Shown here: piece after piece, positions 39,413 to 61,808 of the stretch | How positions within the stretch are numbered: the first letter of the stretch is position 1 | Layout of the letters: every line of letters starts with the position of its first letter | Source of the DNA: Calditrichia bacterium | GTDB lineage: Bacteria > Calditrichota > Calditrichia > JAJRVZ01 | Assembly (NCBI GenBank): GCA_963712885.1 | Contig: CAVQJT010000004.1 | Coordinates: 80,108-144,107 of the forward strand | DNA length: 64,000 nucleotides | Direction: 5' to 3' | Made by a program: the position numbers and the translations under genes | Notes under the pieces: model-generated | Databases searched by the model: none | Told to the model about the DNA's origin: nothing | What the model saw: the letters and a program-made list of their open reading frames with translations, nothing else

Positions 39413-39445
39413 AAAAAAGCCCGGATTGCCGGGCTATTTTATTTA
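39413..39445. terminator. Bidirectional intrinsic terminator between convergent vapC and hicB
   Basis: AAAAAAGCCCGGATTGCCGGGCTATTTTATTT: GC stem GCCCGG/CCGGGC flanked by an A-run and a T-run. Confidence 0.7.
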
Positions 39446-39471
39446 CTCGATAATTATGCATACATAAGTTT

Positions 39472-39915: not shown

Positions 39916-39984
39916 CTTGTGTTATAATCTAAAAATAGCAGTCTTGTATTAAATAAATTTTTTATTTACATCAATAAGTCATGC

Positions 39985-40252: not shown

Positions 40253-40466
40253 TCATATCAATAAGTGTGAAATAAAGATGTGCCGGTTGAATAAAAATGA
40301 AGCCGAAAAATTCGTAAAAGTATGCGCCGATTTAATCTTAAATTAATACGCCGCTTAACCGTATAATTACAATATTGAAAATCATTCTGCCAGGAGCTTG
40401 ACAGATGCAAATCCATTGTGTATAATTATCCACATAAACATGTGGAATAAAAATGCAGGAAAAAAA

Positions 40467-40694
40467 ATGAAGACCATTCAAATGACGATTGATGAAAATC
40501 TGTTAAAAAATGTTGATAAAGCAAGAAAAAAATTAAAAACAAGCAGATCCGAATTTATTCGCCGCGCCATGCACAAATATTTAAATGAACTCAATACCAG
40601 AGATCTTGAAAAGATACATCGTGAGGGATATAAAAAATACCCGGTCAGGAAAGATGAATTTGATGTCTGGGAGAATGAACAGGCGTGGATATAA
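40467..40694 (+). CDS. Ribbon-helix-helix (CopG-type) antitoxin
   Basis: 75 aa from ATG 40467. MKTIQMTIDENLLKNVDKARKKLKTSRSEFIRRAMHKYL is an RHH motif. It sits directly upstream of mazF. Confidence 0.75.
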   Translation: MKTIQMTIDENLLKNVDKARKKLKTSRSEFIRRAMHKYLNELNTRDLEKIHREGYKKYPVRKDEFDVWENEQAWI

Positions 40695-40695
40695 A

Positions 40696-41013
40696 ATGGA
40701 AAGAGGAGAAATTCGCTGGTACAAATTTAAATCACCCGATAAAAAACGCCCTGTTGTTATATTAACAAGGAATTCAGCCATCAATTTTCTTGGAGAAATC
40801 ACTGTGGCTCCAATAACCTCTACAATAAGAGCTATCCCTACTGAAGTGATCCTGGATGAAAAGGATGGCATGAAAAATGTTTGTGCTGTTAATCTGGATC
40901 ATATTCAGACTGTCGCAAAATCACGTATTGGATCGTTTATAGTCAAATTATCCCCACTAAAAATGCTACGAATAAATACTGCTATTTCTTTTGCTCTGGA
41001 AATTAACAGGTAA
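40696..41013 (+). CDS. mazF: MazF/PemK-family toxin endoribonuclease
   Basis: 105 aa from ATG 40696. MERGEIRWYKFKSPDKKRPVVILTRNSAINFLGEITVAPITSTIR is the typical PemK/MazF N-terminus. Confidence 0.8.
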   Translation: MERGEIRWYKFKSPDKKRPVVILTRNSAINFLGEITVAPITSTIRAIPTEVILDEKDGMKNVCAVNLDHIQTVAKSRIGSFIVKLSPLKMLRINTAISFALEINR

Positions 41014-41281
41014 AAAAACCATAAAATATTATTTAAACTGTAAATAGTACCTACTTTGGGTTAAATACAACGAGCCGGTGATTGGACGGTTTGGTACGAA
41101 AGATCCTCATGGTAGCCAAAATTGCTATCATCATTCCCCAAAATCCATATTGAAACCCGTAGGAAAATTGATGCGGGTAGTATCAGAGATATATCAAAGC
41201 GAAATATTTTACATCCGGCAGTCTGTTACATGGGGGTAATTAACATGATGATGTACTCCTTTATGAATAAGATGTGTTCCG

Positions 41282-42875
41282 ATGAAAAATAAGCTCCGGA
41301 TTTCTATATACAAAAAAATAGTAACCGGAATAGTGCTGCTGGCAGCTCATGTCCTTTTTACACCGGTTTATGCTCAGACTGCTGCCAATCCCGATAGCGC
41401 TTTGCTTGAAATTCTGGAAAAAATGGAGGGTATGCCGCTTTCTTTAAAAGAAGCTGTAGAACAGGCTTTAGTCAATGCAACGTCGGTGAGGAAAGCCGAG
41501 TCTGATTATCTGGCAGCCCGTTCAGTCGTACGCCGCGAACGCGGATTTTTTGATCCTGCGCTGTTCTTCGGCCTGGATTACCTGGACTCGAAACTGCCCA
41601 CCGCTTCTTTTTTCGCCGGAGCACCGGTACTGGCTACGCAACAGACCACAGCCCAGGCGGGATTACGATTGGATCTTCCCATTGGTACCCAGCTGGAGGC
41701 GTCCTTAAATGCCATCCGTTTTAAAACAAACTCGGCATTTGCCTTTCTAAATCCCCAGTATACCTCGGTCGGAATATTAAGTCTTCGCCAGCCACTGCTC
41801 CGGGGATTCAGCACATCGGCCAGAAAAGAGCTCAGCAAGGCCGAGCAGCAATTGGATGCCGCAAAGAAAAGATACGATCAGGAAGTGCTGGCGGCAAGTA
41901 CCAGTGTTGAACGGAATTACTGGGATCTTTATGCTGCCGAACGTGATTATGCGGTACAGGTATTACTGCTGAACCAGGGTGAGGCTTTCCTGCGCGAAAC
42001 CGAGTTGCGCGCCAAAACCGGCTTGATCGGACCCGGCCAGGTGGCCAATGCCAAAACATTCCTGGCTGAGCAGAAACTCGGTTATCTTGACCGCGAGGAA
42101 GAGCTGGAGAATCTTTCCAATCAGTCTGGCTTCCCTGATTGGAAAAAGACCGGAAGGTACCGTACCCCGATATTTAACCGTGGATGCACCCCCCTCCGAA
42201 TACCCTATGGAGGAAGCTGATGCTCTGGTCCAATTGGCCATGAATGAAAATTATGATCTGAAAGCAGCGCAGTTCGATGTTCAGACTGTCCGGATAATGG
42301 CCGATGCAGCGGGATGGGAAGCCTGGCCGAGCATGGATCTGGTTGCATCATTGGGGGGAAACGGTCTTTCCGGAGCACCTCAGGATGTTATTTTTGGCGG
42401 TGATACCCTCCTCAGCTCGCGCAGCGGCGGATTTGGTGATGCCATAAAACAGGTGGGACAGCGCTCCTATCCCAATTGGGGTGTTGGTGTGGAGATCAGT
42501 ATTCCGATCGGATCACGTACCGGCCTGGGGGAAAGGGACCGGCTGCGTGCCGAAGTATCCCGGGCAGAACAGGTATATATCGAGCGGACACGGCTGCTTG
42601 AAGAGCAGATACGCAACAGTCACCGCGAACTGCTTCATGGAAAACAACGCCTGGAGGCAGCCCGTGAAGGGGTGGAAGCGGCCCAGGAACAGGTCCGCAT
42701 CGGGTTGATTGATTTCTATAACGGCCGTACCACGGCATTTGAATTGGTGCGCCTGGGCGCAGATTTTGCCACGGCCCAGCAGCGATATTCCCAGGCTCTG
42801 GTACGCACGGCCAAAGCGGCCGCCACATTAAAACAACTAACCTCGGGTGCCTATCCCGCAGACAATACCCATTGA
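41282..42875 (+). CDS. TolC-like outer membrane efflux protein, frame interrupted by one extra base at 42125
   Basis: Track ORFs 41282..42220 and 42048..42875 are two halves of one OEP. Deleting T42125 (CAGTCTG -> CAGCTG) gives ...DREEELENLSNQLASLIGKRPEGTVPRYLTVDAPPSEYPMEEADALVQLAMNENYDLKAAQ.... Confidence 0.8.
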
Positions 42876-47000: not shown

Positions 47001-47195
47001 GGATTTGGTGCCGGGGCCGAATCGCGTCGTCCCCTGGGTCTGGCCGTGGCGGGTGGGATGCTCTTTTCAACCTTTTTAACCCTGATACTTGTTCCGGTGG
47101 TCTATACCATTCTGGCCCGCTATACCAAAACCGGTAAGAGAGAACAGAAAGACCAGGAAGAACCCGTCATACTTGCCGATAATGTCCCGGCATAA
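44091..47195 (+). CDS. RND multidrug efflux transporter (AcrB/HAE1 family)
   Basis: 1034 aa, GTG start. SIQRPVFASVMSL N-terminus, 12-TM/2-loop architecture, VVDDAIVVLENI motif. Confidence 0.9.
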   Translation: MKISSISIQRPVFASVMSLTILLFGIISFTRLPVREYPDIDPPIVSVITLYRGASSSVVETEITNILEEQFATLEGVKTMTSSSREQGSVITIEFELNRDVDEAANDIRDRVSRVRGQLPREVDDPVISKVDANAQPIVWLALFSDRHNGLELTDIGDRVLKERIQRFPGVGSVIIGGERRYAMRVWLDPMRMAAHGLTTQNIEAAIRRENAEIPGGRVEGISREFSVRTRGELSTPQEFEAIIVSQKDGDLVRLRDVAEVMVGAEDERTIARYNGRSAIGLGIVKQSKASTVDVAEVVRAALPELEQSLPVGMKLDVAYDSSTFIKESIDQVVETLIIAMCLVVLVVLAFLKSFRATTIPSLAIPISVIGALAAAYFAGYTINILTLLGLVLAIGLVVDDAIVVLENIYRHMELGKDRRQAAFDGSQEIGFAVVATTIALVAVFVPLAFLTGSVGRLFNEFGISLAVAILISGFVALSLTPMLSSKLLKPLHGSGSGWASRSFDAFFEFLNRIYERSLRIALKFRVLMIAGAALAVGLSLVLFYIMPSELVPIEDRGIAFGIVIAPEGATLEYTDSYMREVENRLLRLPEARGVFTAIGLGFGGPGRVTNGFVFLALKPRGERQKSQQQIVQELFPQLISIPGVLAFVINPPSLGGSFSSSPVEYILQAETYEELSQSLGIMMQEANKLGYFVNLDSDLRLNKPQLDITIDRERASGQGVSVTDIGSTLETFLGGKVVTNFKRGTKQYDVILQMRSSGRATPDAIDEIYVRSNGGLVQLANVVKIEETLAPKELNHYNRVRSAKISSSLLPGVSLGQALDDLDRIAEEKLPAGIKREYAGQSLEYKSSSSSLYLMFLLALVFIYLVLSAQFESFVHPFTILLSVPLAVFGALVTLYGFGQSLNIYSQIGLIMLIGLVTKNSILIVEFSNQLRAAGQPVVEAVVKAATIRLRPILMTSFATIFGVLPIAIGFGAGAESRRPLGLAVAGGMLFSTFLTLILVPVVYTILARYTKTGKREQKDQEEPVILADNVPA

Positions 47196-47568
47196 GGGAT
47201 TGGTGATATCCGGCAAATAATATCAAATTATTTAGAGTTTTAATTTGGTACTAAAAAATAATATTAAGCTGAAGTTGTATGATATATATTATTATATTCG
47301 TTCTAAATACAGTCCCAAATTTTACAAAGATTCCAAAATCATATGGCCACAAAGGCATCTTATCAGATTCATTGTATAGAGTTCTGATTTTAATTAATTC
47401 TTCAAGTAAATTATTACCTGACGTACGGATGGATTCATTCATAATATGTTTGGTCTTATATTTTTCATATAGTTGATTAAAATTATGCAATATTCTCTCC
47501 GACTCTATTTATTTGGATTCTTTCATTGAATTACTCTATCCGATTTCCACTCAACAGCATATAAATGA

Positions 47569-47748
47569 GTGGGTTATAGATACCGGGATTACCGGCATAC
47601 TTTTGTTACCCTGGCATTGACTCATGATATTGATCTATATACGGTGTCCAAACTGTTAGGTCATCGGGAGATTAAAACGACCCAGTTATATGCCAAATTA
47701 AGTGACAAGAAAAAAGATGAAGCGGTTGATAAGCTTTCACGCATTTAA
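47569..47748 (+). pseudogene. Tyrosine recombinase (phage integrase) C-terminal remnant
   Basis: Open frame ...YRHTFVTLALTHDIDLYTVSKLLGHREIKTTQLYAKLSDKKKDEAVDKLSRI* matches the integrase box II / catalytic Tyr region (RHTFAT...LLGH..i.TTq.Y). There is no N-terminal part upstream. Confidence 0.7.
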
Positions 47749-48226
47749 CTAAAGATACGGCAAAATAAAAAAAGGTAGAAATTCTGTGTTCTATCGGTTA
47801 CAATGTTTTGTTTGTCTTAGGAATTGAAACTAGCTTAAATTCTCACACTATTTTATTAACGGTTTTATCAATAATTTTAGTTGCCGGGGTTTTCTTTGAT
47901 ACATGTGTTAGAGTATCAATTACAAATTTACGTGTTTCTATTTTTAATTTATCATCATAATACATTTGTTTCTCCAAATACATTTGTTTCTCCAATTATT
48001 TATTTCGTGTACTAAGTGAACTGAGATTTTTGTCAATTATAAAATCACCAAAATCCCTTATCCAATATTTCTGTTTTAATTTATTGCTGTCGAGATAATT
48101 TCTAAGATCCCCATCTAACTCTAACAGAGGGATTAGAGCTTTCGCCACATCATCAGCTCTTATTTTGACACCGCCCGGGAAGTTATTAGATTAGAATTCA
48201 GGTAAAAAAGGAATAATTTTTTTGTA

Positions 48227-48597
48227 CTAACCTGGATTTACAACTTTTAGTGCAGTTCCCAATAAACTTTCCCAACCCATTCCGGAAACAAACAAGGTAC
48301 AGAGTTGAATAAAGATTGGCTTTTTGGGGTCAAATGAGTTTTTATATACACCGGGCAATATAATTATACCGGCAATCACAGCAAACAGTATTCTAGTCTG
48401 TAATTCCTTCGAGACTCCATTCTCCCGTCTCCTGAAATTTTGCAAAAAATGGCTGGATCAGAACACCTAAAATTAAAGCGATATATTGAGGTAAAACAGG
48501 TGGCAACTTTTCACCTTCGGCTTTATCCTCTTTTACCGTTGGTCTGACTGAAGATACCAAATCGAAGTACTTTACAGCAGAATTTAAAGTCTTTCAT
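48227..48597 (-). CDS. Small membrane protein, frame interrupted twice (extra bases at 48590 and 48397)
   Basis: ATG at 48597. Deleting T48590 (AAGTCTT -> AAGCTT) and T48397 (TAGTCTG -> TAGCTG) yields one ~123-aa ORF: MKALNSAVKYFDLVSS...PQYIALILGVLIQPFFAKFQETGEWSLEGITARILFAVIAGIIILPGVY...LGTALKVVNPG. Confidence 0.45.
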
Positions 48598-48689
48598 TCA
48601 ATACCTCTATTATTTAAGGATTGAATATTTAATTTCCTAGGTTATAACATGATTATATGATTATTCTAAATTTTGAAAATTGGTAATTT

Positions 48690-49924
48690 TTAATTTGCTT
48701 TTTTGAGCAGGATCACATTGTTATTCCCACCAAATCCAAATGAATTTACAAAGGCAATATTAACATTAAAGCTAATACCTTGGTTTGCGGTATAGTCAAG
48801 ATCGCAGTTGGGATCTGGATTATCAAGATTTATTGTTGGCGTTAAAAAGTTGTGTTTCATCGTTTCTATTGTGCAAATAGTCGAAATTACTGCACTAGCC
48901 CCTAAAGTATGGCCTATCATGGATTTAATTGATGAAATAGGTATACTGTAAGCCCTTCTGCCAAATATGGCCTTTATAACATCCGTCTCTATTTGATCAT
49001 TCAGAATGGTTGAAGTACCATGGGCATGAATATAATCAACTGCAGGGGGTTGAATAGAGGCATCTTTAAGGGCCAAATTAACTGCCAGTCTTTTGACCTT
49101 CCAAATTGGGTTTTACTATATGCTGGGCATTGTTGCTTGAGCCATAACCAAGTATCTCACAGCATTTGTTTCCATTTCGATCATTAATATGTTTTTCAGA
49201 TTCTAAAATTAGAATTCCCGCCCCTTCCGATAAAACCAATCCTTTCCTATCAATGCTGAATGGTTTGGATGCTTTGCTAGGCTTATCATTTGACTTGGTG
49301 TTTAATACCTTTAGTTTTTGAAAGTGTCCTATGGTTGCATCTGTGAGAGGTGCTTCTGCACCACCCGTTATGCACGCATCTAGAATTCCGTTTTTAATGA
49401 GTATATAGGCTAAACCAATTGCAGCGCCTGAGGATGAACAGGCAGAATTTATTGTATAATTTATTCCTTGTATTCCGTATTCCATTGCAAGTAGATTGCT
49501 CGGTGTGTTAGGCATTGAAGCAAGAAATGGTTCGATAATATTACCCGTTTTATATACATAATAATCCTTATAGCACTTCTCTAGAGATTCCATTCCACTT
49601 AATGCTATTCCAATAACTATTCCTATCTTTGGATTACCTTCTATAGTTAAATTTGAATTATTAATGGCTTCGTCTGCCGCTATCTTTGTTAAGATTGAAA
49701 TGCGGTCGTATAAAAAGCTGAGGAAGGTTATGCTTAAATTTAGTATTTAATGAATTTGAGATAAATCCTGCGATTTTCACACTCGTTTCGGATAGATTTA
49801 AAAAATTAATTTTTTTAATCCCAGACCTGCCTCTACTTGAATTTTCCCAAAACTCATCTACACCAATTCCATTGGGTGACACGATCCCCGTACCGCTCAC
49901 GAATACTTTAACGTCCCTTTTCAT
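48690..49924 (-). CDS. Beta-ketoacyl-ACP synthase (FabF/FabB-type KS, Cys-His-His), split over three frames
   Basis: Pieces 49661..49924 (MKRDVKVFVSGTGIVSPNGIGVDEFW), 49078..49593(+upstream) with active-site INSACSSSGAAIG, and 48690..49076 with HAHGTST and SMIGHTLGASA. One break is repaired by deleting T49089 (CAGTCTT -> CAGCTT), giving PNLEGQKLAVNLALKDA. The other break, near 49725, lies next to an intact CAGCTTTTT run. Confidence 0.75.
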
Positions 49925-50160
49925 TTTTTTAGACTTATTAAAGATTTTATATAGATATATGCCTTCTCAATATCATCTAACAAATCTATTTGTGTTTCAT
50001 CAATTTCAACATCGTATTTGTTTTCTATTGAAGATATTAATCTTAGGATATCAAGAGAGTCTAAACCAAAGTCTTTTGAGAGGCTGCTATTTTCATTAAG
50101 TTTTTCGAGCGGAATTTCTAAAACATCGGCTATCGTTTCAATAAATTCAATTTTTGTCAT
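49921..50160 (-). CDS. Acyl carrier protein
   Basis: 79 aa. Phosphopantetheine Ser motif FGLDSLDILRL. Its stop overlaps the KS start (ATGA). Confidence 0.8.
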   Translation of the reverse strand: MTKIEFIETIADVLEIPLEKLNENSSLSKDFGLDSLDILRLISSIENKYDVEIDETQIDLLDDIEKAYIYIKSLISLKK

Positions 50161-50177
50161 ATCAAATTGCCATAAAA

Positions 50178-50828
50178 TTAAACTATATAAAGTCCACCGT
50201 TTAAATGTATTGTTTGTCCAGTTAAATAAGGAGTCTTACATAAAAAGTCTATAGAATTAATTATATCATTGGTAGTACAAAATTTTTGCATAGGGATAAT
50301 TTTTAAGGCTTTATATAAACTAACATTTGTTAGCATATCAGATGCCATACCGGTCTCAACTAAACCTGGCGCTATTACAAATATATATTTTTTTTCAACT
50401 AGTAATTCTCTGTATAAAACCTTTACTAATCCATGGACGGCATTTTTACAACAGCAATAAGTGGATTGTCCCAGACGAGGGGAGATAGCAGCGCTTGATG
50501 AAAAAAGAATTATGTTGCCTTCCCTGCTCAGTTTTGGAATTATACATTTTAATACATTAAATGTCCCTAGAATATTATTATCAACCATCTCCTTAAACGA
50601 ATTATATGACATCTTGTAAAAAAAATTCGTAATGTTCTTAGCAGCACAATGTATAAAAGTATTTATCCCTTGAAATTTAATATCTTTAAAATATTCTTCT
50701 GTTTTTTCCCAATTACAAAGATTTACTTCTTTTCTATTTATTCCGAAAACAATATTTCCATCATTTCGGTAGTGCTCAAATAAATGTTTTCCTATACCGC
50801 GACTAGTACCTGTTATAACAATTTTCAA
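50178..50828 (-). CDS. SDR-family oxidoreductase (3-oxoacyl-ACP reductase-like)
   Basis: 216 aa. TGTSRGIGKHL cofactor motif, Ser (FSSSAA) and YCCCK (YxxxK) catalytic residues. Confidence 0.75.
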   Translation of the reverse strand: MKIVITGTSRGIGKHLFEHYRNDGNIVFGINRKEVNLCNWEKTEEYFKDIKFQGINTFIHCAAKNITNFFYKMSYNSFKEMVDNNILGTFNVLKCIIPKLSREGNIILFSSSAAISPRLGQSTYCCCKNAVHGLVKVLYRELLVEKKYIFVIAPGLVETGMASDMLTNVSLYKALKIIPMQKFCTTNDIINSIDFLCKTPYLTGQTIHLNGGLYIV

Positions 50829-50912
50829 CTAGGTTATCTCTTTTATGTATTAAGTAATGAATGGAACTGGATCAGAAGATAAATCACAATAGGTTATTTC
50901 TCAGTCATTTAC

Positions 50913-51809
50913 TTATTCAAAAATTGTACACGAGGCGGGATCAGCCACAATCCCTAAATTTTTAATTTTTTCTGCAGGTAAATCCACGGCAACAATAAAA
51001 TTGGTAAACTCATATTCCTTTAATTCCGATGTATGGACAGATCCATTTACAACATAAACTGGGATTAAAAATCTCTGGAAATCAAATGGTGGCATAGCAT
51101 AATAGGCAAACTTCATATCGTGAATTTTTACGGAAGAAGAATCTTTTGATAACCTCATAAATCTTGGATCATTTACAAATTTATTTAAGACTACAACTGG
51201 ATGTAATAATTGCATTACCTCTTCTTCTTCTGGGTTTCTCCAAAAATAAAGGACTTGACTCATTTGTTTTTCATCGGCGAATGATATTTTTAATTTTGCT
51301 CCTGGTCCCATCACTGGAATATCGTTCAAAACAAAATTATAGTAAATATGGATTTCAGTTTTAAACTCAGTTGTTTTTTTTGTCTTCACATCATCAACTG
51401 AAACTTCGGTATATTTAATGCACTGAAATTTTAGGAAATCGTCCTTAAATTTGAATTTTTCAATTGTTTTTTTTGCTAATTCAAGTGCTTCCTTTTCACT
51501 GGTTAATTTTTCCCGGCCAGAAAATTCTTCTCTATAAGCCAAACGGTCATTAGTCCACCAAACGGAATCACTTGCCTTATATACCTCAAGCGTATAGTCT
51601 TCGTCTTCCGCGACAGCCGTGTCTCCCATATCACTAAACTTGGATTTAGTGTTAAACATCTCTGCATATTTCTTCAATCTTTTTTCAAAGTCATTCACCA
51701 CATTTTTTTCACGAAATGATAATGTTTTATATGGTGATGTCCTATACATCATAGCTGATTCAAGAAATTCAGGGATTACTTTTGGATAAGAAAATAAATT
51801 ATTATTCAT
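50913..51809 (-). CDS. Hypothetical protein (298 aa), no recognised family; possible tandem PepSY-like beta/alpha modules
   Basis: Intact ORF with no signal peptide, 16 nt downstream of the protease-like gene. Segments LTSEKEALELAKKTIEKFKF and KFAYYAMPPFDFQRFLIPVYVVNG are reminiscent of PepSY/YpeB-type inhibitor-like modules. This is a weak impression only. Confidence 0.5.
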   Translation of the reverse strand: MNNNLFSYPKVIPEFLESAMMYRTSPYKTLSFREKNVVNDFEKRLKKYAEMFNTKSKFSDMGDTAVAEDEDYTLEVYKASDSVWWTNDRLAYREEFSGREKLTSEKEALELAKKTIEKFKFKDDFLKFQCIKYTEVSVDDVKTKKTTEFKTEIHIYYNFVLNDIPVMGPGAKLKISFADEKQMSQVLYFWRNPEEEEVMQLLHPVVVLNKFVNDPRFMRLSKDSSSVKIHDMKFAYYAMPPFDFQRFLIPVYVVNGSVHTSELKEYEFTNFIVAVDLPAEKIKNLGIVADPASCTIFE

Positions 51810-51825
51810 TGTATCCTCTCCTTAG

Positions 51826-52497
51826 TTAACATGAACCTTTTGCATAGTAAAAAACACTCGGCTTATTAGGATCCGGACTAACATATCCCTTTCCATGCCA
51901 ATGATCATTGCCGGTGTTGGTTCCACTTTGTTCAGCACGGTAATAGGCCCAATCTGTATCAGAACCCTGCGTTTCTTCGCAAGCCTTTCTCCAGGCAACA
52001 CGCACCTTTTTACCCGAATTTAGGCGCTCAGCAAATTTTCTACCTCTGTCTGATTTGTCACTACAGGTTGTGTGAAAACCCAAAATATAATGAAGTCCTT
52101 TATAGATTTTTTGCCAATTTTTCCGACTGCCCTTGGCAAGTACCTGGCAAGCATCAAAAATAATCCATTCGTTATTTCTATCTCCTAATCTCATTTCACT
52201 TGCTTTAGCCCGACCATCATCTCTGTCTGCTCGACCAAATAATGGCCCCGTAGAATTTCCATGCCCTGAAAAAAATACGATATCTACATCATCAGCGTAA
52301 TAATTATCAGTCCCGGCTGCAGGGCTACCAACGCCACTTTGCTCAAAATCCTGGTCCCAAGCCAAATCATCTCCATAATCAAATTGCCTAGTTCCACTCA
52401 ATTTGTTATAAAAGCCTCTAGCATTATTGTCATTATTCTTTAATTCCGATGCTCTGCCATGATATTTATTAACCCATTCTATCCCAATTGTACCCAT
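51826..52497 (-). CDS. Hypothetical protein (223 aa) with His-Gly ... Asp-Ala-Cys arrangement reminiscent of clan CD (caspase-fold) cysteine peptidases
   Basis: VDIVFFSGHG (hydrophobic strand + His-Gly) is followed ~38 aa later by EWIIFDACQVL (hydrophobic strand + Cys). This is the order and spacing seen in caspase/gingipain/legumain-type folds. No signal peptide. Confidence 0.5.
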   Translation of the reverse strand: MGTIGIEWVNKYHGRASELKNNDNNARGFYNKLSGTRQFDYGDDLAWDQDFEQSGVGSPAAGTDNYYADDVDIVFFSGHGNSTGPLFGRADRDDGRAKASEMRLGDRNNEWIIFDACQVLAKGSRKNWQKIYKGLHYILGFHTTCSDKSDRGRKFAERLNSGKKVRVAWRKACEETQGSDTDWAYYRAEQSGTNTGNDHWHGKGYVSPDPNKPSVFYYAKGSC

Positions 52498-52748
52498 ATC
52501 ATTCTCCTTTTTTTATTAAGTTAATAACATAAACATTTAAAGCTTTATTGATCTAACTAAGTTAATCTTAGATAATGGAAAGTTTCACCTTTTAAAGAAA
52601 AACGGGAAGTATTCCGCAAAGCTGTCTAATATGAAGATGGAATACTGAAATTATACTACTCGTAAGTCAATGTACTATATGAGAGAGAATTAACATTTTA
52701 AGAATAAGGTTTTATGTTCTGCTTGTCAATACAAAAAGGGTGTAATAA

Positions 52749-52769
52749 TTGAGTGGAATATTTGAGTGG
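52749..52769 (-). promoter_or_regulatory. Direct repeat TTGAGTGG x2 (13-bp spacing) between the AraC-type gene and the operon; candidate operator
   Basis: The + strand reads attgagtggaatatttgagtggctattttgagg. It lies in the 294-bp gap upstream of the protease-like gene. Confidence 0.2.
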
Positions 52770-52791
52770 CTATTTTGAGGTCAATTATTGG

Positions 52792-53118
52792 CTAGACCTT
52801 AGCTCTTCTCCGATATGTTGCGGGTGGTTTGCCATTATATTTTTTAAACACCTTAATAAAGTATTTGTCGTTTTGAAAACCAACTTCCAATGCAATTCTA
52901 TAAAGTATCCAATCTGTACATTTAAGATATTTTTTAGCTTCTCGGCAGCGAATCAAATTTAGATACATATTTAATGTTATCCCGGTCTCTCGAACAAAAA
53001 TTTCACGTAATGAATTGTAATTACACCCAATTCCTTTTGATATTTCCTGAATCGAATGTATTGATCTGTAGTTATGTTTAATATATTGTAAAGCTATTTC
53101 TACATTTTTTTTATACAT
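52792..53118 (-). CDS. AraC/XylS-family transcription regulator, HTH-only (MarA/SoxS-like size)
   Basis: 108 aa. Two HTH units (IQEISKGIGCNYNSLREIFVRETG ... IALEVGFQNDKYFIKVFKKYNGKPPATYR). No ligand domain. Confidence 0.8.
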   Translation of the reverse strand: MYKKNVEIALQYIKHNYRSIHSIQEISKGIGCNYNSLREIFVRETGITLNMYLNLIRCREAKKYLKCTDWILYRIALEVGFQNDKYFIKVFKKYNGKPPATYRRRAKV

Positions 53119-53771
53119 ACGATTGTAGTAAATAAATCATATACAATAAAAACACAAACAACAATCATGCCGCCATAGATAAAATAAAATAAGCTATTGA
53201 AATTACTTAATATAATCTAGTATAACTTATAGGGTAATTGTTAATTATGTGAATTATAATTCAAATTTTGTGAACTATTATTCTTTTTCTATATTAATGG
53301 GAAATAATAATCTTGTTTAAATGTGCATAAAACATCATGAAGGGATGGGTATATTTTACTTGTTACTATTCTATATTTTAACTTAATTTTAAACTACAAA
53401 TCATTTGAATATTTCTTCATATACATGATATGAAATATTCGCTTAGTCTAAACAAAACTTCACAAATAATATACATAAGGATGGTCTATTTGACAATTTT
53501 ATGCAAGGAATATGTTTATTTACTATTGACCTTACCCCTTTGTTTGAACAAGTTTATTTGAGAGTAACTCCTGGTTTTTATACTGATTTGGGGTCAAATA
53601 ATTTAAAGAACTATGAGGTCGATATAATTATAATCGACCTGTTTTTTTTCACTTAATTCCTTTGCTTGATCTAAATTCATAAACCAGTTCATATTCAAAC
53701 ATTCAATTATATATTGTACTTACACTGAATGTTTAGTAATTAACTACAGAGGCGGAGTATGTATAAGGATA

Positions 53772-54926
53772 ATGACAAATTTATTGATCAATCCAGAAAA
53801 GAAGCCAATGATGTTAAATCTTGCTTTACCACATTTTCCTTTCAGGCCGTCGCTTTTAGTGCCGTTGTATTGGGAGTCTATCATTAAATTTCAGCAAAAC
53901 CAACCTTATATTTGTTTTGCTGCAATTCTTGTTACTCTCATAGTTCTAACAGTATGCAGAATCGGTAATTATAAATTTGCTACTGCTAACAGACATAATG
54001 GATTTGAACTATATTTAGACTCTTTAAAATCAAAACAAAAAGCATACCCGAATTTATTAGATGATATTTGCTGGGAAGCTGCACTCAGAGCATGGCGCAT
54101 TGTCCAGGCGACAATTTTTTCAGAGTTATTATACACAAAATTAAATACACGATGGTGGAATATTGTCAAAAGGTGGAATTATAATAAAATCAAAAAAAGT
54201 ATTATTATTTCTGAAATAAAAAATAGGCAGAAAGAAGATACACAAAATGCGCAAAGAACAAGAAACTTTAATTTAGTAAAAAAATACGAAGATTATAATA
54301 AAATAAAAAATAGCTGCCAAAGATGGTTTAATACCGGGATATTGACTAATGATTATGGAGTAAAATGGTATCCTGGGAGATATCTGCATACTATGCAAAA
54401 AGTATTGGAAATTATAGCGGTAATATCTCTTTTTCCTTTAGGTTTTGCTGTTCTACAATTCCAGTTCTGTGCCGAATATAGTTCTTTTAATTTTATTTGT
54501 AATAATATTTCCGTCAATGGCTTTGCTTTAATTACTGTTTTTATTTTATTTGTATCGGTAATCGCAGTGGTCGTCAATATTCATCACATAAATACGCGTA
54601 GAAAAGTATTAGAAAGTGGTTTGTTAAGTATACATACATGCTCTGTTCTCTGGCAGGTTGTTTCGATTGTACATCATCGTGCAATAAAAGGCACGGGAAA
54701 TGATCAAAATAAATATTTAGAAAATTTAGTGAAAGAGACAGAAGAACTAAAAAAATATGTTACGGATATTTATGGCTGGGTAAGAAAGGTTGGTGGAAAG
54801 AATAAGTCTTTTCGGTCCTTGTTAATAACAATATATATGTATTCTGGGTTTAAAATTGTGATACGTCAGACCCTCCCGGACCAAACTTTGAAAATTATAA
54901 GAGATATAGAGGAGGTCTGGCGATGA
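53772..54926 (+). CDS. Hypothetical multi-TM membrane protein (384 aa)
   Basis: Intact ORF, divergent from the AraC gene across a ~650-bp AT-rich gap. Hydrophobic segments ICFAAILVTLIVLTVCRIG, VLEIIAVISLFPLGFAVLQFQF, GFALITVFILFVSVIAVVVNI and LLSIHTCSVLWQVVSIV. A Lys/Asn-rich loop and a soluble C-terminus. No family recognised. Confidence 0.55.
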   Translation: MTNLLINPEKKPMMLNLALPHFPFRPSLLVPLYWESIIKFQQNQPYICFAAILVTLIVLTVCRIGNYKFATANRHNGFELYLDSLKSKQKAYPNLLDDICWEAALRAWRIVQATIFSELLYTKLNTRWWNIVKRWNYNKIKKSIIISEIKNRQKEDTQNAQRTRNFNLVKKYEDYNKIKNSCQRWFNTGILTNDYGVKWYPGRYLHTMQKVLEIIAVISLFPLGFAVLQFQFCAEYSSFNFICNNISVNGFALITVFILFVSVIAVVVNIHHINTRRKVLESGLLSIHTCSVLWQVVSIVHHRAIKGTGNDQNKYLENLVKETEELKKYVTDIYGWVRKVGGKNKSFRSLLITIYMYSGFKIVIRQTLPDQTLKIIRDIEEVWR

Positions 54927-55062
54927 ATCAAGAAGTAAAAGATATTCTAAATCAGGGAAGTAAACTTTTCGTTTTAGAGTATGCGAAGACCATGGGCAAT
55001 GTAAATCCTAAGCACGAAATCCTAAATCCGAACAAATTAATAATTTAAATGTCTAAAACAAA

Positions 55063-55090: not shown

Positions 55091-55250
55091 GGGATTTGGT
55101 GCCTGGTCCTTGGTATTTTGAGGACCGAAGGTCCGAGTTTTGGGTCCCGCCCAAGTCGGAACAACCGGGGTCTCCCGGTAGGCGGATGCGCCTGTTCCAT
55201 TTCACGGGATCTCCGACTCGGCGCATTCGAATCCCCCTTTCTGGCACTGT
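55091..55250. ncRNA. Candidate structured RNA of unknown class (GC-rich, stem-dense, bracketed by terminators)
   Basis: A ~160-nt GC-rich block in AT-rich surroundings. Hand-found helices: GGACC-GAA-GGTCC, CCGGG-GTCT-CCCGG, AGTCGGA/TCCGACT, GGGTCCCG/CGGGATCT, GGGATT/AATCCC. It occupies the same position relative to a repeat+terminator module as tRNA-Val does at 59.0 kb. The short ORFs listed here are probably spurious. Confidence 0.3.
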
Positions 55251-57254: not shown

Positions 57255-57600
57255 AAAACGGGACCTACGCTGCGCTCCAACGAGACAGGATTCGAATCCG
57301 CCGGAAGGCGGACCTTCGCTGCGCTACGGCCTGTGAAGTATTAAATCCGAAATCCGAAACATTTTATAAAAACTAATACTCAAAATAAAAAAACCAGCTC
57401 GCAGATAGGCTGGTTTAAAATATCTGAATTATAGATTATTCGGATTTCGAAATTCGTGCTTCGAGTTTCGAAGGCCGAAGGCCTGAGTGGTAGGTCCCGA
57501 AGATCGGGATATACGCTATGTCCAACGAAACAGGATTAGATTCCCGAAATATTAGGAACATCCGCTTTGCTCCAGCCTGTGACCACAGAAATTCATCTAA
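57255..57600. repeat. tRNA-Val-derived scars plus terminator/IR module
   Basis: 57281-57296 cgagacaggattcgaa is identical to the tRNA-Val gene's + strand sequence at its 3' portion. 57526-57540 cgaaacaggattaga is a degenerate copy, and 57576-57584 cctgtgacc matches the tRNA variable/T-stem region. 57365-57500 duplicates 58875-59012. Confidence 0.6.
57391..57416 (-). terminator. Intrinsic terminator (minus-strand sense), paralog of the tRNA-Val terminator
   Basis: AAACCAGC-tcgcagatag-GCTGGTTT preceded by an A-run on the + strand (a U-run on the minus strand). Confidence 0.5.
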
Positions 57601-57782
57601 CGGTGAATTAAAATCTCAATAATCAAATTCAAACTTCAAATACTGCGCGGGCAGTTTTGACCAAAAATTTATTTGACGGTGCATCGTCAGAAGGCAAGCG
57701 AGGATTTGAAACTGGATCCGATTTGATGTATAATTAATAATCCGATCAAATCTTTTTGACTGTCAAGAGAAAGACAGGTGAT

Positions 57783-58712
57783 ATGCATCAGCCGGGCACC
57801 ACGCCATTTTACATATATATTTTGTTAATTTTTCTGCTTCTGCCGCCACAGAAGGCACCGGCCACGGAAGCATACGCGGAAAAAACCGGTAAAGATTGTA
57901 TCGCCTGTCATATGGATCCATCCGGTGGCGGTGAGTTGAACGAAGTGGGAAAGGCCTTTCAGAATCATTCGGGCACCGGTAATGATACGGTTGAAAAAAT
58001 CAGTTCGGGTTTATCCATCCTTCGTTTTATCGCCGGATATCTGCACATCATTACGGCGGTATTCTGGTTCGGGACGATTCTATATGTCCATCTGATCCTG
58101 AAACCGGCCTATGCCGCCGGTGGGCTGCCCCGGGGGGAGGTGCGGGTCGGATTGTTCTCCATGATGATCATGCTGGTTACCGGAACGGTTCTGGTCCTTT
58201 TCAGGGTATCATCCTTTGAGCTGCTTTTCGGATCACGTTTCGGCATTTTATTGAGCATCAAGCTGGGCCTGTTTCTGATGATGGTCGCCACTGCGCTGGT
58301 GGCTGTATTCTTTATCGGACCGAAGCTGCGCCGGGATAAAAAAGAGGGCGGCCAAAAGTCCGGTGACGATATGTCATCCGAAGCGCTGGCGTATTTTGAC
58401 GGTAAAGAGGATCGTCCGGCCTATATCGCCTATAAAGGGGATATTTATGACGTGTCCAAAAGCGGCATCTGGTATGGCGGCATGCATTTTTTCAGGCATG
58501 CTGCCGGGAATGATCTGACCGGTTTTCTCAGCCAGGCGCCGCACGGCGAAGAAAAAATACTGAAGATGCCCAGAGTCGAAAAAGCAGCCATCGAGGGAAA
58601 AAAAACAAGACCACCAAAATATGAAAGGCTGTTTTACTTCATTGCTTATTTCAATCTCACCATGGTCTTTTTAATCCTATTAATCCTGGCCCTGTGGAGG
58701 TGGTGGGGTTAA
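57783..58712 (+). CDS. Membrane redox fusion: N-terminal c-type heme site (CxxCH), CopD-like TM block, C-terminal cytochrome b5-like heme/steroid-binding domain
   Basis: 309 aa from ATG 57783. Signal, then KDCIACHMDPSGGGEL. About 4 TM helices. C-terminal LAYFDGKEDRPAYIAYKGDIYDVSKSGIWYGGMHFFRHAAGNDLTGFL is a cyt b5-like pattern, followed by a final TM helix. Confidence 0.6.
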   Translation: MHQPGTTPFYIYILLIFLLLPPQKAPATEAYAEKTGKDCIACHMDPSGGGELNEVGKAFQNHSGTGNDTVEKISSGLSILRFIAGYLHIITAVFWFGTILYVHLILKPAYAAGGLPRGEVRVGLFSMMIMLVTGTVLVLFRVSSFELLFGSRFGILLSIKLGLFLMMVATALVAVFFIGPKLRRDKKEGGQKSGDDMSSEALAYFDGKEDRPAYIAYKGDIYDVSKSGIWYGGMHFFRHAAGNDLTGFLSQAPHGEEKILKMPRVEKAAIEGKKTRPPKYERLFYFIAYFNLTMVFLILLILALWRWWG

Positions 58713-58907
58713 AATTGATCGGAGGGCGCTGAAGGGTATAAAAGAATAATCACCTTTAAAGAATTTTTTCATTCGACCCGGAAAGGACTATATGTTCTAA
58801 ATCAACGAGGAAAACTTATGGTTCTGGAGTATACAAAGGCCATTGGCAGTGGAATTCCCAAGCACGAAATCCGAAAAAATTTTTAAAGACTAATACTCAA
58901 AATAAAA

Positions 58908-58940
58908 AAACCAGCTCGGAGATCAGCTGGTTTAAAATTT
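58908..58940 (-). terminator. Intrinsic terminator downstream of tRNA-Val
   Basis: AAAAAAACCAGCT-cggagatc-AGCTGGTTTAAAA. A U-run follows the stem on the minus strand. Confidence 0.6.
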
Positions 58941-59009
58941 CTGAATTATAGATTATTCGGATTTCGAAATTCGTGCTTCGGGTTTCCCGAAGGCCATCGG
59001 CCTGAAGAG

Positions 59010-59087
59010 TGGTGGGCGAGACAGGATTCGAACCTGTGACCCCCTGCTTGTAAGGCAGGTGCTCTAAACCAGCTGAGCTACTCGCCC
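59010..59087 (-). tRNA. tRNA-Val (anticodon TAC), CCA encoded
   Basis: The reverse complement GGGCGAG-TA-GCTC-AGCTGGTTTA-GAGC-A-CCTGC-CTTACAA-GCAGG-GGGTC-ACAGG-TTCGAAT-CCTGT-CTCGCCC-A-CCA folds as a canonical cloverleaf. Confidence 0.9.
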
Positions 59088-59839: not shown

Positions 59840-61808
59840 ATGAATATCCTTGGTATATCGGCTTTCTATCACGACAGTGCGGCGGCGTTGGTGCGCGACG
59901 GCGAAATTATCGCTGCCGCCCAGGAGGAACGCTTTACCCGCAAAAAACACGATCCGGAGTTTCCGGAAAAAGCCATTGCCTATTGCCTTAAAGAAGCCGG
60001 AATCGATGCCACACAGATCGACCATGTGGTGTTCTATGATAAACCGTTCCTGAAATTCGAACGTATCCTGGAAACCTATCTCCACTATGCACCATACGAA
60101 TTTCGCTCATTTATCAAAGCGATGCCGCTGTGGATGAAGAAAAAACTGTGGATCAAATCACTGGTCCAGGACGATCTTCCCGGTTATAAAAATGAAGTGC
60201 TCTTCTCCGAACATCACCGGTCCCATGCCGCTTCGGCCTTCTATCCGTCCCCCTTTAATGAGGCGGCGATCATTACCGTCGACGGGGTCGGCGAATGGAC
60301 GACCACCAGCCTGGGATACGGCAAAGATAACCACATCGATATCCTGAAAGAGATCCACTTTCCCGCATTCCCTGGGCATGCTCTACTCGGCGTTTACCTA
60401 CTATACCGGCTTTCGGGTAAATTCCGGTGAGTATAAACTGATGGGCCTGGCACCGTACGGGGAACCGAAATATGTCACGACGATTCTGGATCAACTGATC
60501 GATATCCGGGAAGACGGTTCCTTCCGGCTCGATATACGCTACTTCAATTATGCCGCCGGTCTGACCATGACCAGCCGGAAATTCGACCGGCTATTCGATG
60601 GACCCCCCGCTAAACCGGATGAAACACCGGGTCAGCGCGATATGGACCTGGCGCGATCGGTGCAGGAAGTGATCGAGCAGGTGATGATCAATATGGCGAA
60701 GCCGTCAAAGAACTGACCAACGCGAGTATCTCTGTCTGGCGGGTGGGGTGGCACTCAACTGTGTGGCCAATGGAAAACTTGTTACGTGAAGGATCTTTCG
60801 ATGATCTCTGGATCCAGCCGGCCGCCGGCGATGCAGGCGGGGCGCTGGGTGCCGCCCTGGCGGTATGGCATGCCTATCTGGATCAACCGAAAAAGCCATC
60901 CATGCTGCCGGACCGGCAGATGGGATCCTATCTGGGGCCGGAGTTTGATGATGATGAGATTTTGATATTTTTAAATCATTACAGCATTCCGTTTGAAAAA
61001 TACAGCGACAAAGTGACAAAGCGACAGGATAATCAGGTAGGGCCATGGCGTGCCATGGCCGGTGACAGCGAATCCGTGATTCGCCCTGCGCCAAAGAAAC
61101 AAAGCGACAAAGAAGGGGCGGTTCGAGAACCGCCCGAAGGCAATGGTGAAACAACGGGGTATGATATCATCAACAAAACCGCCAAATTATTGGCGAATGA
61201 AAAGGTGATCGGATGGTTTCAGGGCAGAATGGAATTCGGCCCCCGGGCGCTTGGGCTCGCAGCATTCTGGGTGATGCGCGGTCACCCAAAATGCAGCGGG
61301 AACTAAACCTTAAGATAAAATTCCGTGAGTCATTCCGGCCATTCGCACCGGCGGTCGCCGTGGAGGATAGTGCGAACTATTTTGAAATGGACCGGTCCAG
61401 TCCTTATATGCTGCTGGTGGCGGATGTGAACAAGGACATACGATTCAACCCGACGGTCAACCAGCAGAACCTGACCGGTCTGGATAAACTGTATGTCCGC
61501 CGATCGGAACTGCCGGCCGTCACCCATGTGGATTATTCGGCACGACTGCAGACGGTGGACAAACATACAAATCAAAAATTCTGGATTGCTGCAGGCATTT
61601 AAATACACTTACCGGCTGTCCGGTGCTGATCAATACGTCGTTCAATGTGCGCGGTGAACCGATCGTCTCCACACCGCTGGATGCCTATAGATGTTTTATG
61701 CGTACCAATATGGACTATCTGGTCCTGGGGAATTTTGTGCTGGATAAAAAACAGCAGCCGCAAAAAATAGCCGGGATCGAGTGGGAGGAGACCTTTGCAC
61801 CTGATTAA
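59840..61808 (+). pseudogene. Carbamoyltransferase (NodU/CmcH family), heavily decayed: at least 7 frame changes plus an in-frame ~150-nt hairpin-element insertion
   Basis: The family sequence is readable only by hopping frames: MNILGISAFYHDSAAALVRDGEIIAAAQEERFTRKKHD (59840-), SLGMLYSAFTYYTGFRVNSGEYKLMGLAPYG (60378-), AVKELTNA / YLCLAGGVALNCVANGKL / LLREGSFDDLWIQPAAGDAGGALG (60690-60850), VIGWFQGRMEFGPRALG (61200-), RSILGDARSPKMQRELNLKIKFRESFRPFAP (61260-), LINTSFNVRGEPIV (61623-). Confidence 0.8.

Follow-up and report, generated by a model that had tools for sequence, protein, structure and literature searches.

The functional heart of the AT-rich island at 47196–55050 of the window, the 64,000-nt stretch of a Calditrichia bacterium contig analysed here, is a cassette of five genes that encode a DUF6345 protein (D), a partner protein (P), a FabG-like ketoreductase (KR), a private acyl carrier protein (ACP) and a FabF-like ketosynthase (KS). 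D and P are an obligate pair: a self-contained, widely transferred two-gene module and the deeply conserved core. Beyond this genome, the five-gene cassette as a whole recurs in at least seven uncultured lineages. As to function, our preferred reading, plausible but held tentatively, is that D and P act on an acyl group bound to a carrier protein, by a chemistry that we infer.

On the minus strand, the genes follow each other in the order AraC, DUF6345 (223 aa), 298-aa partner, SDR, ACP, KS and a small hydrophobic ORF. A gap of 294 nt separates AraC from D, and the genes then lie 16 nt (D to P), 84 nt (P to SDR) and 17 nt (SDR to ACP) apart, with a 4-nt ATGA overlap between ACP and KS; the co-directional string with gaps of 16–84 nt and one ATGA overlap described in the earlier note is therefore real. 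That note had also read it as an AraC-headed operon. The string stands, but the unit is not an operon of eight genes under AraC: this regulator is missing from every related locus, and so are the small membrane ORF and the 384-aa gene. The AraC/XylS-family regulator (52792–53118, minus strand; 108 aa, of MarA/SoxS size) has HTH_18 (E 2.1e-17) as its only domain and is a local addition. The small hydrophobic ORF (48227–48560, minus strand), which is split by one frameshift into the overlapping ORFs 48393–48560 and 48227–48445, has no homologue at any related locus by tblastn and is island cargo outside the conserved cassette. Likewise, the 384-aa protein (53772–54926, plus strand), which is hydrophobic and belongs to a family without a name, is island cargo that is elsewhere unlinked to the cassette; it scored nothing above the curated Pfam cut-offs and had no match in NCBIfam, PADLOC or PHROGs, while its representative relatives at E ≤ 0.001 number 351. 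In the intergenic leader before the DUF6345 gene (52498–52791, minus strand), sequence reading and a pattern search identified two copies of TTGAGTGG (52749–52756 and 52762–52769), which are the direct repeats previously reported in the 294-nt gap, and a strong Shine-Dalgarno sequence ahead of the gene. The leader showed no conservation in related cassettes.

D (51826–52497, minus strand; 223 aa) matches PF19872 (DUF6345) over profile positions 1–220 of 221 with 251.5 bits, against a gathering cut-off of 26.9, and the profile is matched by all 32 aligned D homologues. With the AF2 model of D (pLDDT 85, pTM 0.86), the best PDB match in Foldseek was the CHAT domain of 8tl0 (E 6.5e-7, probability 1.0), and further matches were C11 proteases, caspase-4, MALT1 and legumain. 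His79 (in SGHG, after the strand 73–77) and Cys117 (in DAC, after the strand 111–115) are invariant in 32 D sequences; the two residues, His first, close consecutive core strands at their C-terminal ends, as in clan CD peptidases. Peptidase_C14 is matched weakly by 10 of the 32 members (best E 0.0017), and D itself misses the gathering score of that family with 16 bits vs 21.4. No sequence match to D was found in the PDB. The protein is a single domain in which no sensor, prodomain, delivery domain or signal peptide was detected; a C-terminal Cys and an acidic loop are likewise invariant. The model thus points to a small cytoplasmic enzyme of the caspase/CHAT/clostripain (clan CD) fold with an intact His79/Cys117 dyad, and both the structure search and the invariant dyad support the initial impression that the 223-aa protein is caspase-fold-like.

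P (50913–51809, minus strand; 298 aa) is predicted by its AF2 model (pLDDT 91, pTM 0.87) to contain tandem YycH/YycI-like domains. Foldseek matched it to 5coz (E 6e-10), YycH (9a5d_B, E 3.6e-6) and YycI (2o3o; YycI E 6e-6 to 3e-5); the matches to the YycH/YycI structures have a probability of 1.0 and a TM of only ~0.45, because the domain arrangement differs. The modelled P has three domains and the fold type of YycH/YycI. None of 31 aligned members matches any Pfam family, YycH/YycI included, the N-terminus shows no hydrophobic segment, membrane anchor or signal, and no conserved two-component neighbours were seen at the P loci. Gasdermin is not among the listed Foldseek PDB matches of P. The check on the pair raised by the earlier note came out in its favour: neither protein hits a characterised family, the 223-aa one being a DUF and the 298-aa one lacking a Pfam assignment.

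In 77 loci, D comes first and P second on one strand, a median of ~10 nt apart; the flanks of these loci are unrelated, and their hosts are Pseudomonadota, Bacteroidota, Actinomycetota, Acidobacteriota and also Asgard archaea. The median identity to the window proteins across these loci is 60% for D vs 30% for P. Most D-P loci are without a private ACP, KS and KR (all 58 in one locus set, 54 of them from species-representative genomes), so the pair has no need of them. Could D then be an ordinary cysteine protease, with P as its dedicated cytoplasmic inhibitor, chaperone or substrate, and KR-ACP-KS either a co-transferred neighbour without mechanistic connection or just the maker of a lipid that the product requires later? 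The clan CD fold and dyad of D and the self-sufficiency of D-P at most loci would suit such a protease; the far stronger conservation of D agrees with an enzyme whose binding partner evolves faster, and tandem alpha/beta domains like those of P serve as regulators elsewhere. However, Foldseek placed P with neither the gasdermins nor the staphostatin-like barrels, and an ordinary protease leaves two features of the ACP-bearing loci described below unexplained: the translational coupling of a private-subfamily ACP to P in a separate high-GC lineage, and the contiguity of five genes at 42–70% identity in hosts with a GC of 0.34–0.51. We regard this explanation as unlikely, if still a contender.

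The string D-P-KR-ACP-KS with an intact KS of 411–416 aa was found in six further metagenomic lineages (L059, L063, L064/65, L066, L069 and L089), and a seventh contig (L088) ends inside the SDR. The 223-298-KR-ACP-KS string is thus conserved elsewhere together with an intact KS, which answers the neighbourhood check in the affirmative. P is only 42–46% identical to the window P in the cassette loci, and their flanks differ, while the five genes remain contiguous across the identity and GC ranges given above. In the high-GC lineage L085–87, and also in L076, the order is TetR-D-P-ACP, and the stop codon of P overlaps the start codon of the ACP. KR/ACP/KS is a clade-specific extension of D-P in one superclade, with ACP alone as its minimal form. 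The P tree suggests a single ACP gain followed by losses; the association with ACP should therefore be weighed as about one event in evolution rather than eight.

All three proteins of the extension resemble components of type II fatty-acid synthesis. The SDR ketoreductase (50178–50828, minus strand; 216 aa) matches adh_short and KR, shows TGxxxGIG and YxxxK motifs in its translation, and has FabG proteins as its nearest solved structures. The ACP (49921–50160, minus strand; 79 aa) matches PF00550 (PP-binding, E 6.9e-12) and contains GLDSLD with the DSL phosphopantetheine site. The FabF-like KS (48690–49924, minus strand), of the KAS II subfamily, is read from three fragments that match ketoacyl-synt and Ketoacyl-synt_C, displays the Cys-His-His motifs SACSS, HAHGTS and GHTLGAS, and aligns full-length with FabF structures. 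Best matches to FabG, AcpP and FabF in the gene order of a fab operon might suggest that the trio is a spare set of housekeeping genes for bulk FAS II capacity, but this is very improbable. All three proteins score below the equivalog cut-offs: the SDR reaches 105 bits on the FabG model TIGR01830 (cassette SDRs 105–118 vs 297.75), the cassette ACPs score 41–54 vs ~70 on AcpP models, and the intact cassette KSs score 399–418 vs 493.75 on TIGR03150 and pass only the KAS II subfamily model (387). There is no fabD, fabZ or fabI with the trio, which stands immediately after D-P in every case found here, and the ACP has a motif of its own. This motif, IE(N/S)KYD(I/V)(D/E)(I/L)D...DLLD, is common to all pair-linked ACPs, whose mutual identity is 37–55% vs 27–31% to E. 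coli AcpP; they form a distinct private subfamily.

The divergence of the trio from its housekeeping equivalogs would also be expected in a conflict setting, in which D is a toxin-like protease or modifier of host AcpP/FAS II, P is the immunity protein or antitoxin, and the diverged fabG-acpP-fabF or the lone ACP stands in for the target in resistant form or acts as a decoy, much as antibiotic clusters carry genes for self-resistance. The ~60% identity of D across phyla and domains, expected if its target is very conserved, the canonical fabG-acpP-fabF order of SDR-ACP-KS and the lone ACP as minimal extension would all agree with it. Nevertheless, D, P and the 384-aa protein had no match in PADLOC and PHROGs, IMG/VR contained no relative of D, the D-P loci lie outside defence islands, and D is without a delivery or sensor domain. 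Moreover, a resistant target copy would undo an abortive-infection toxin, and the replacement genes are missing from most D-P loci. We therefore give a conflict role little credence.

The cassette reached this genome on a horizontally acquired, foreign island. The left edge is sharp: GC falls where the RND pump gene ends in its stop codon (47195), and it is 0.323 in the island vs 0.472 in the backbone, ~6 SD apart. Per 4-kb window, GC is 0.317–0.339 in the island vs 0.472 ± 0.023 in the backbone (35 windows, minimum 0.433), and the tetranucleotide distance is 4.15–4.71 vs 1.40 ± 0.28 (maximum 2.16), more than 10 SD out. Both measures bear out the AT-rich block that had been noticed by eye directly after the pump. 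On the plus strand, 47569–47748 encodes the C-terminal remnant of a tyrosine recombinase (59 codons), which covers only positions 132–171 of the 172 in the Phage_integrase profile (29.1 bits), as proposed for the left edge from the outset; it also matches the C-termini of the XerC/XerD models and PHROG integrase families. The gene is truly truncated, as the 373 nt between the RND stop codon and the fragment are too short for the ~250 missing codons. Deviant composition and a mobility gene, the defining pair of features of a genomic island, thus occur together. The repeat at the right edge (54933–55026) recurs, as claimed, at the tRNA-Val locus: a second copy at 58783–58876, with 77% identity over 94 nt, adjoins the tRNA-Val gene (59010–59087), 4 kb beyond the right edge of the island. 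The sole repeat that flanks the island, 18 nt with an 89% match at 47001 and 55092, is at chance level.

The KS of the window carries exactly two frame breaks (+1 frameshifts), near 49717 and at 49088–49094, each caused by one extra base. Removal of one base at each site restores 410 aa with zero internal stops, collinear with the intact 411–416-aa homologues at 55–62% identity, so the doubt about its integrity resolves into superficial damage. Near 49717, the break coincides with an AGCT site (49716–49719) that also adjoins a T5 run; the other one, at 49088–49094, is at an A4 run, and AGCT is absent from the overlap of the small ORF frames (48393–48445). The assertion that most breaks are of the AG^CT class is thus not borne out, as only the one near 49717 is at AGCT. 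Backbone genes are split likewise (OEP, 41282–42875; Zn-ADH, 28828–29845; a carbamoyltransferase; a kinase), making assembly error a likely source of the KS breaks. Is the cassette nonetheless a dead remnant that does nothing in this genome? Two frameshifts in KS, one in the small ORF and the reduction of the integrase to a remnant would be in keeping with decaying cargo. Yet the KS breaks are single extra bases by homopolymers in a gene that is otherwise stop-free and well matched to intact homologues, the backbone genes point to assembly error, and D, P, SDR and ACP are all intact, which makes decay improbable.

Returning to the preferred reading, in which D and P act on a carrier-bound acyl group, KS and KR would assemble or elongate a 3-hydroxyacyl chain carried by the private ACP, with malonyl loading and phosphopantetheinylation borrowed from the host fatty-acid machinery. 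D would be the sole catalytic nucleophile of the cassette without an assigned role; it could take the thioester-bound acyl group onto Cys117 and then hand it to water or to an acceptor that P offers, which might be P itself. At loci without a private ACP, the pair would use host acyl-ACP. In favour of this reading stand the fold and dyad of D, the D-P pairing, the ACP linkage and the fact that the cassette encodes no thioesterase or acyltransferase. Against it, the ACP link could mean regulation or target replacement instead of substrate supply, the window KS has two frameshifts, most D-P loci have no ACP/KS/KR, and the ACP link amounts to about one event. The coupling of lipidation to proteolysis that the earlier note suggested is a speculative idea.

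A further point against the preferred reading is that, to our knowledge, the clan CD enzymes characterised so far are all proteases or transpeptidases, which work on peptide bonds, and none acts on acyl-ACP thioesters. A bolder proposal, which we consider rather unlikely, is that D is the first caspase-fold enzyme to work on a phosphopantetheine thioester and not just on peptide bonds. As a transacylase, a carrier-protein-dependent D would lipidate P or another acceptor. In the reverse direction, D would cleave a protein and load the acyl-enzyme product onto the private ACP, and KS and KR would then extend the loaded unit to a gamma-amino-beta-hydroxy (statine-like) unit. Either version, if true, would mean new clan CD enzymology, and D-P would be a new two-gene module with a spread over both Bacteria and Asgard archaea.

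Finally, we would like to compare the cassette with the closest known systems. Its gene content is that of no described pathway or defence system that we could find, and the combination of a caspase-like enzyme, a partner and a private ACP/KS/KR matches no described system. D shares its core fold with clan CD peptidases (8tl0; C11 6n9j and 6mzo; caspases, MALT1 and legumain) at Foldseek E values of 6.5e-7 to 6.5e-3 and a TM of ~0.5, and like them carries the catalytic His in an HG motif and the catalytic Cys in a (D)AC motif, at the ends of consecutive beta-strands. The nearest of them, PDB 8tl0, is the CHAT domain of type III CRISPR SAVED-CHAT (bioRxiv 10.1101/2023.06.23.546230). Unlike these peptidases, D consists of one domain of 223 aa, falls short of the Peptidase_C14 gathering score, lacks a PDB sequence match, has an invariant C-terminal Cys and acidic loop, and is always paired with P. 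P is similar in its tandem alpha/beta fold to YycH/YycI, the accessory regulators of the WalK kinase (2o3o, 9a5d), and to the uncharacterised 5coz (Foldseek E 6e-10 to 3e-5). Unlike YycH/YycI, it has no N-terminal membrane anchor, no YycH/YycI Pfam match and no adjoining two-component system.

Cysteine protease genes tightly linked to the gene of an inhibitor or substrate are familiar from staphopain-staphostatin and from bacterial gasdermins with their caspase-like proteases, which D-P resembles in the linkage of a protease to a single partner. P is, however, neither a staphostatin barrel nor a gasdermin, PADLOC gave no match, and we know of no ACP link in those systems. The trio corresponds to the type II FAS genes fabG-acpP-fabF, the order of the canonical fab operon, in families, order and intact catalytic motifs, with FabF and FabG as the nearest solved structures to its KS and SDR; it differs from that operon in its sub-equivalog scores, the lack of fabD/fabZ/fabI, the private ACP motif and the D-P pair directly before it. 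In NodE/NodF with NodA and in the AcpXL cluster with LpxXL, the special acyl chain comes from a private ACP and KS and is then transferred by a dedicated enzyme. Unlike these, the cassette contains no recognisable acyltransferase and has a predicted caspase-fold enzyme and a YycI-like protein instead.

The minus-strand gene string of the AT-rich island behind the RND pump agrees exactly with the earlier note. An AraC regulator consisting of its HTH only (52792-53118) is followed after a 294-nt gap by the gene for the 223-aa protein (D; 51826-52497), after 16 nt by that for its 298-aa partner (P; 50913-51809), after 84 nt by an SDR ketoreductase gene (50178-50828), after 17 nt by an acyl carrier protein (ACP) gene (49921-50160) and, through an ATGA overlap, by a ketosynthase (KS) gene (48690-49924). 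As a unit, the AraC-headed string does not hold, since every related cassette examined lacks the AraC regulator and the small membrane ORF with its frameshift, as well as the hydrophobic 384-aa protein, for whose unnamed family 351 representative relatives were counted. What is conserved at depth is the pair: in 77 loci, drawn from 54 species-representative genomes plus retrieved metagenomic contigs, P lies behind D, on the same strand and with a median gap of about 10 nt, and the exceptions to this order are solely cut-off contigs and one divergent lineage in which it is reversed. The two are shown to be an obligate pair. Their flanks differ between lineages and include RND pumps, SusCD, MFS/TetR, LysR regulators and housekeeping genes; because a constant pairing stands among unrelated neighbours, the deep conserved unit is a mobile two-gene module. 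Within it, P changes at about twice the rate of D, with median identities to the window's proteins of 30% and 60%, respectively. An apparent natural D-P fusion (P0172, 439 aa) turned out to be a frameshift-ridden read-through, and 'Cluster 2', seemingly kept beside D in 21 loci, an artefact of antisense ORFs in high-GC genomes. A functional tie to the adjacent RND pump was also discarded: Kordia likewise has an RND gene followed by D-P, yet identity between the two pumps is only 25%, and as the island is simply inserted behind the window's pump, we treat the adjacency as coincidence.

Individual loci show features of their own. In Kordia (locus L001), a small gene pair lies directly behind D-P at 9809-10308, its second gene weakly ParE toxin-like (E 5e-4). 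In Actinoplanes (L002/L032, 1-7808), the pair adjoins genes for RpoN (sigma-54) and a sigma-54 activator, an uncommon neighbourhood for Actinomycetota, and an alpha/beta hydrolase gene directly follows P. A Baldrarchaeota contig (L058, 5060-9540), with several partner-like genes in tandem and fragmented DUF6345-like genes, is the sole locus with multiplied copies. The record titled Glaciecola amylolytica (L007, Gammaproteobacteria) and a Fluviicola MAG (L012, Bacteroidota) are syntenic over 20 kb at 67-97% protein identity, which suggests that the record is mislabelled or that a very large stretch was transferred.

D matches Pfam DUF6345 over its full length (251 bits) and is a small, single-domain protein without a signal peptide, sensor or extra domain. 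Homologues at 57-72% identity are abundant (Kordia, Roseateles, Actinoplanes, Saprospiraceae, Thermoanaerobaculia, Promethearchaeota), and the family is unusually conserved, with about 60% identity across Bacteroidota, Actinomycetota and Asgard archaea. Residues invariant in a 32-sequence alignment include H79 in SGHG, C117 in DAC, H136, C173, D198, W200 and the C-terminal C223. In the AlphaFold model built on this alignment (pLDDT 85, pTM 0.86), H79 comes just after strand 73-77 and C117 just after strand 111-115. A search of D against PDB sequences gave zero matches; a Foldseek search of the model against the PDB returned the CHAT protease domain of SAVED-CHAT first (8tl0, E 6.5e-7), followed by C11 clostripain-like proteases, caspase-4, MALT1 and legumain. 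Weak, sub-threshold matches to Peptidase_C14 were found in 10 of the 32 members. On the strength of these matches and the invariant H79/C117, we assign D to clan CD as a predicted caspase-fold Cys-His enzyme. To our knowledge, prokaryotic caspase-fold proteases have been studied almost solely as immune or cell-death effectors. A known defence system or phage origin was considered here and set aside, as PADLOC, PHROGs, IMG/VR and BFVD all gave no match.

P matches no Pfam or NCBIfam family, nor do any of its 31 aligned members, and its one match among PDB sequences (E 1.8) is at chance level. Foldseek matches of its model (pLDDT 91, pTM 0.87) were to 5coz, an uncharacterised protein (E 6e-10), and to YycH and YycI, regulators of WalK (E 4e-6 to 3e-5). 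The model thus indicates tandem alpha/beta domains of the YycH/YycI type; gasdermin-like and staphostatin-like folds were rejected, all listed matches being of this type. The earlier note had named a place in well-characterised families as refuting; in the profile searches, neither protein hits one.

Does the pair travel with the fatty-acid genes elsewhere? It does, with the KS intact (411-416 aa) and in the same order D-P-SDR-ACP-KS, in the homologous loci L059, L063, L064/L065, L066, L069/L070 and L089/L090; the contig of a further locus, L088, ends 38 codons into the SDR gene. The closest relatives of the window's D-P pair are all metagenomic. Across the cassette loci, identity to the window is 62-72% for D, 41-46% for P, 55-61% for SDR, 40-55% for ACP and 55-62% for KS, flanks differ, and cassette GC runs from 0.34 to 0.51. 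Such divergence under a kept gene order, among differing flanks and over so wide a GC range, argues that the cassette is old and under selection. The dedicated KR-ACP-KS set proposed by the earlier note is therefore real as a linkage, but specific to a clade: SDR, ACP, KS, AraC and the 384-aa gene were found within 10 kb of D-P in none of the first 58 loci. Should the fatty-acid synthesis (FAS) genes merely be hitch-hiking, D would be a plain protease and P its inhibitor or substrate, an explanation that fits easily beside the protease matches of D and that we regard as fairly unlikely given a second lineage with a carrier protein. In that high-GC lineage (L085-87, plus L076), the order is TetR-D-P-ACP, the ACP start overlaps the P stop, and nothing coding follows. 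The ACPs linked to D-P all carry the motif IE(N/S)KYD(I/V)(D/E)(I/L)D...DLLD; they are 37-46% identical between the two lineage types and 27-31% identical to E. coli AcpP. A neighbour-joining tree of P places both ACP-bearing groups in one superclade, alongside ACP-less members, which is consistent with the ACP having been gained once and then lost or replaced several times. It is thus shown that, in one superclade, D-P is joined to a private ACP, with or without KS and KR.

The loci L060-62 are an example of such a replacement, with three giant proteins where the trio would be. In L060/L061 (2762-12691), these same-strand proteins of 1778, 560 and 2140 aa follow D-P; the first two are without a Pfam family, the first also without a PDB match, and the third has DUF6603 as its only Pfam family, plus a weak precomputed match to 3keto-disac_hyd.

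That D is repeatedly linked to ACPs of one private subfamily, in part of the loci together with KS and KR, suggests that acyl groups bound to a carrier protein are the substrate or target of D. KS and KR, with FabD and AcpS of the host, would build a 3-hydroxyacyl chain on the private ACP. The cassette, 3.8 kb long, self-contained and extant in intact versions, encodes no malonyl transferase, dehydratase, enoyl reductase, thioesterase or acyltransferase, and in this set without an off-loading enzyme D would hold the only unassigned nucleophile. The acyl group may be taken onto Cys117 of D and then handed to water or a P-bound acceptor; hosts without a private ACP would use their own acyl-ACP instead. 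We put this acyl-ACP reading forward tentatively, as one with somewhat less than an even chance of being right as a whole. KS, SDR and ACP are nearest to FabF, FabG and AcpP and are ordered as in the fab operon, and all three score below the housekeeping equivalog cut-offs. Simple spare FAS genes, to which the fab-like order would answer, are hardly credible beside those scores. A toxin/immunity pair D/P directed against AcpP or FAS II, with the trio as its resistant replacement, would accommodate an ACP so distant from AcpP, and with no match in the defence databases we think it quite improbable.

A further alternative is that the window's cassette is dead cargo. The KS region lies in three frames, collinear with intact homologues; if a single base is removed near 49717 and another within 49088-49094, the result is a 410-aa KS without internal stop, 55-62% identical to the intact proteins. 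The former break lies at an AGCT immediately before a T5 run, the latter in an A4 run; the AG^CT class, to which the earlier note had ascribed most breaks, covers one of three in the island and was dropped as a common cause. Outside the island, the OEP outer-membrane efflux protein gene (41282-42875, two overlapping ORFs) and a Zn-dependent alcohol dehydrogenase gene (28828-29845, two ORFs) are split by frameshifts, a carbamoyltransferase (59840-60430) is present by its N-terminus alone, and a kinase (34132-34758) covers its profile only as far as position 195 of 263. Breaks of this kind suggest that indel errors are systematic in the assembly, and because backbone genes are split likewise, assembly error would be the more likely source of the KS breaks, as the earlier note had suspected. 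Dead cargo, although compatible with a broken KS, is accordingly improbable.

The AT-richness claimed for the island itself (47.2-55.0 kb) is confirmed, and both composition measures deviate: in 4-kb windows its GC is 0.317-0.339 against 0.472 +/- 0.023 for the backbone (35 windows), and its tetranucleotide distance to the backbone 4.15-4.71 against 1.40 +/- 0.28 (maximum 2.16). GC drops sharply, exactly at the pump's stop codon (47195). The integrase remnant was also recovered: the ORF at 47569-47748 matches the Phage_integrase profile over its last 40 positions only, plus the C-termini of XerC/XerD models, and with a mere 373 nt between the pump and this ORF, the truncation is genuine. The right-edge repeat (54933-55026) does recur next to tRNA-Val (58783-58876). 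Around that locus, a 16-nt tRNA-Val piece (59017-59032) is duplicated at 57281-57296, and a 122-nt repeat (57348-57469 and 58865-58986, 93% identical) flanks a CopD/cytochrome-b5 gene (57756-58712); 57281-59087 looks like an old integration scar. An 18-nt direct repeat near both island edges (GGATTTGGTGCCGGGGCC, 47001-47018; GGATTTGGTGCCTGGTCC, 55092-55109; 89% identical) is of a size expected by chance, so we claim no att site. The non-coding left part holds the 18-mer AATACATTTGTTTCTCCA in two perfect tandem copies (47959-47994).

In the AraC-D gap, the reported direct repeats of TTGAGTGG are present at 52749 and 52762. Each of the four copies in the 64-kb window (47547, 52394, 52749 and 52762) falls within the island; the expectation is about 1.6 per window and at least four were reached in 7 of 100 shuffles, only weakly beyond chance. 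The repeat pair may be a candidate site of the local regulator. A conserved leader, riboswitch or operator was rejected, as regions upstream of D do not align between cassettes and tRNA-Val is the sole Rfam match in the window, and a sigma-70 promoter and terminator scan stayed at chance level (45 found, 40 expected).

Elsewhere in the window, a second AT-rich island (31000-41200; GC about 0.36, tetranucleotide distance 3.1-3.6) encodes three Ser/Thr protein kinases (31637-33721; 34770-37529, with TPR repeats; and the truncated 34132-34758), a PIN toxin (38919-39323) and a MazF/PemK toxin (40585-41013). Two further matches, a T9SS C-terminal sorting domain (Por_Secre_tail) in the ORF at 9041-9502 and DUF6029 at 7125-8699, suggest in combination that the host is a member of the Bacteroidota/FCB group.

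If the acyl link is true, clan CD chemistry would be extended, DUF6345 and an unnamed 290-aa family would gain a function, and a new lipid, lipoprotein modification or fatty-acid synthesis inhibitor may come to light; truly new enzymology we nevertheless consider unlikely. PADLOC, PHROG, Rfam and the literature searched hold no description of pair or cassette, as the earlier note had supposed, and the literature on DUF6345 comes to one proteomics table entry, a 536-aa DUF6345-domain protein of Tannerella forsythia, with nothing functional. In kind, the system is a clan CD enzyme module with a specialised type II FAS set. D resembles clan CD in its predicted fold and dyad and differs in missing the curated C14 threshold and in having no characterised relative, while P resembles YycH/YycI in its modelled tandem alpha/beta domains and differs from them in having no membrane anchor. 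The trio, finally, is a diverged copy of the fabG-acpP-fabF segment, alike in gene order and set apart from the housekeeping equivalogs by its sub-cut-off scores.
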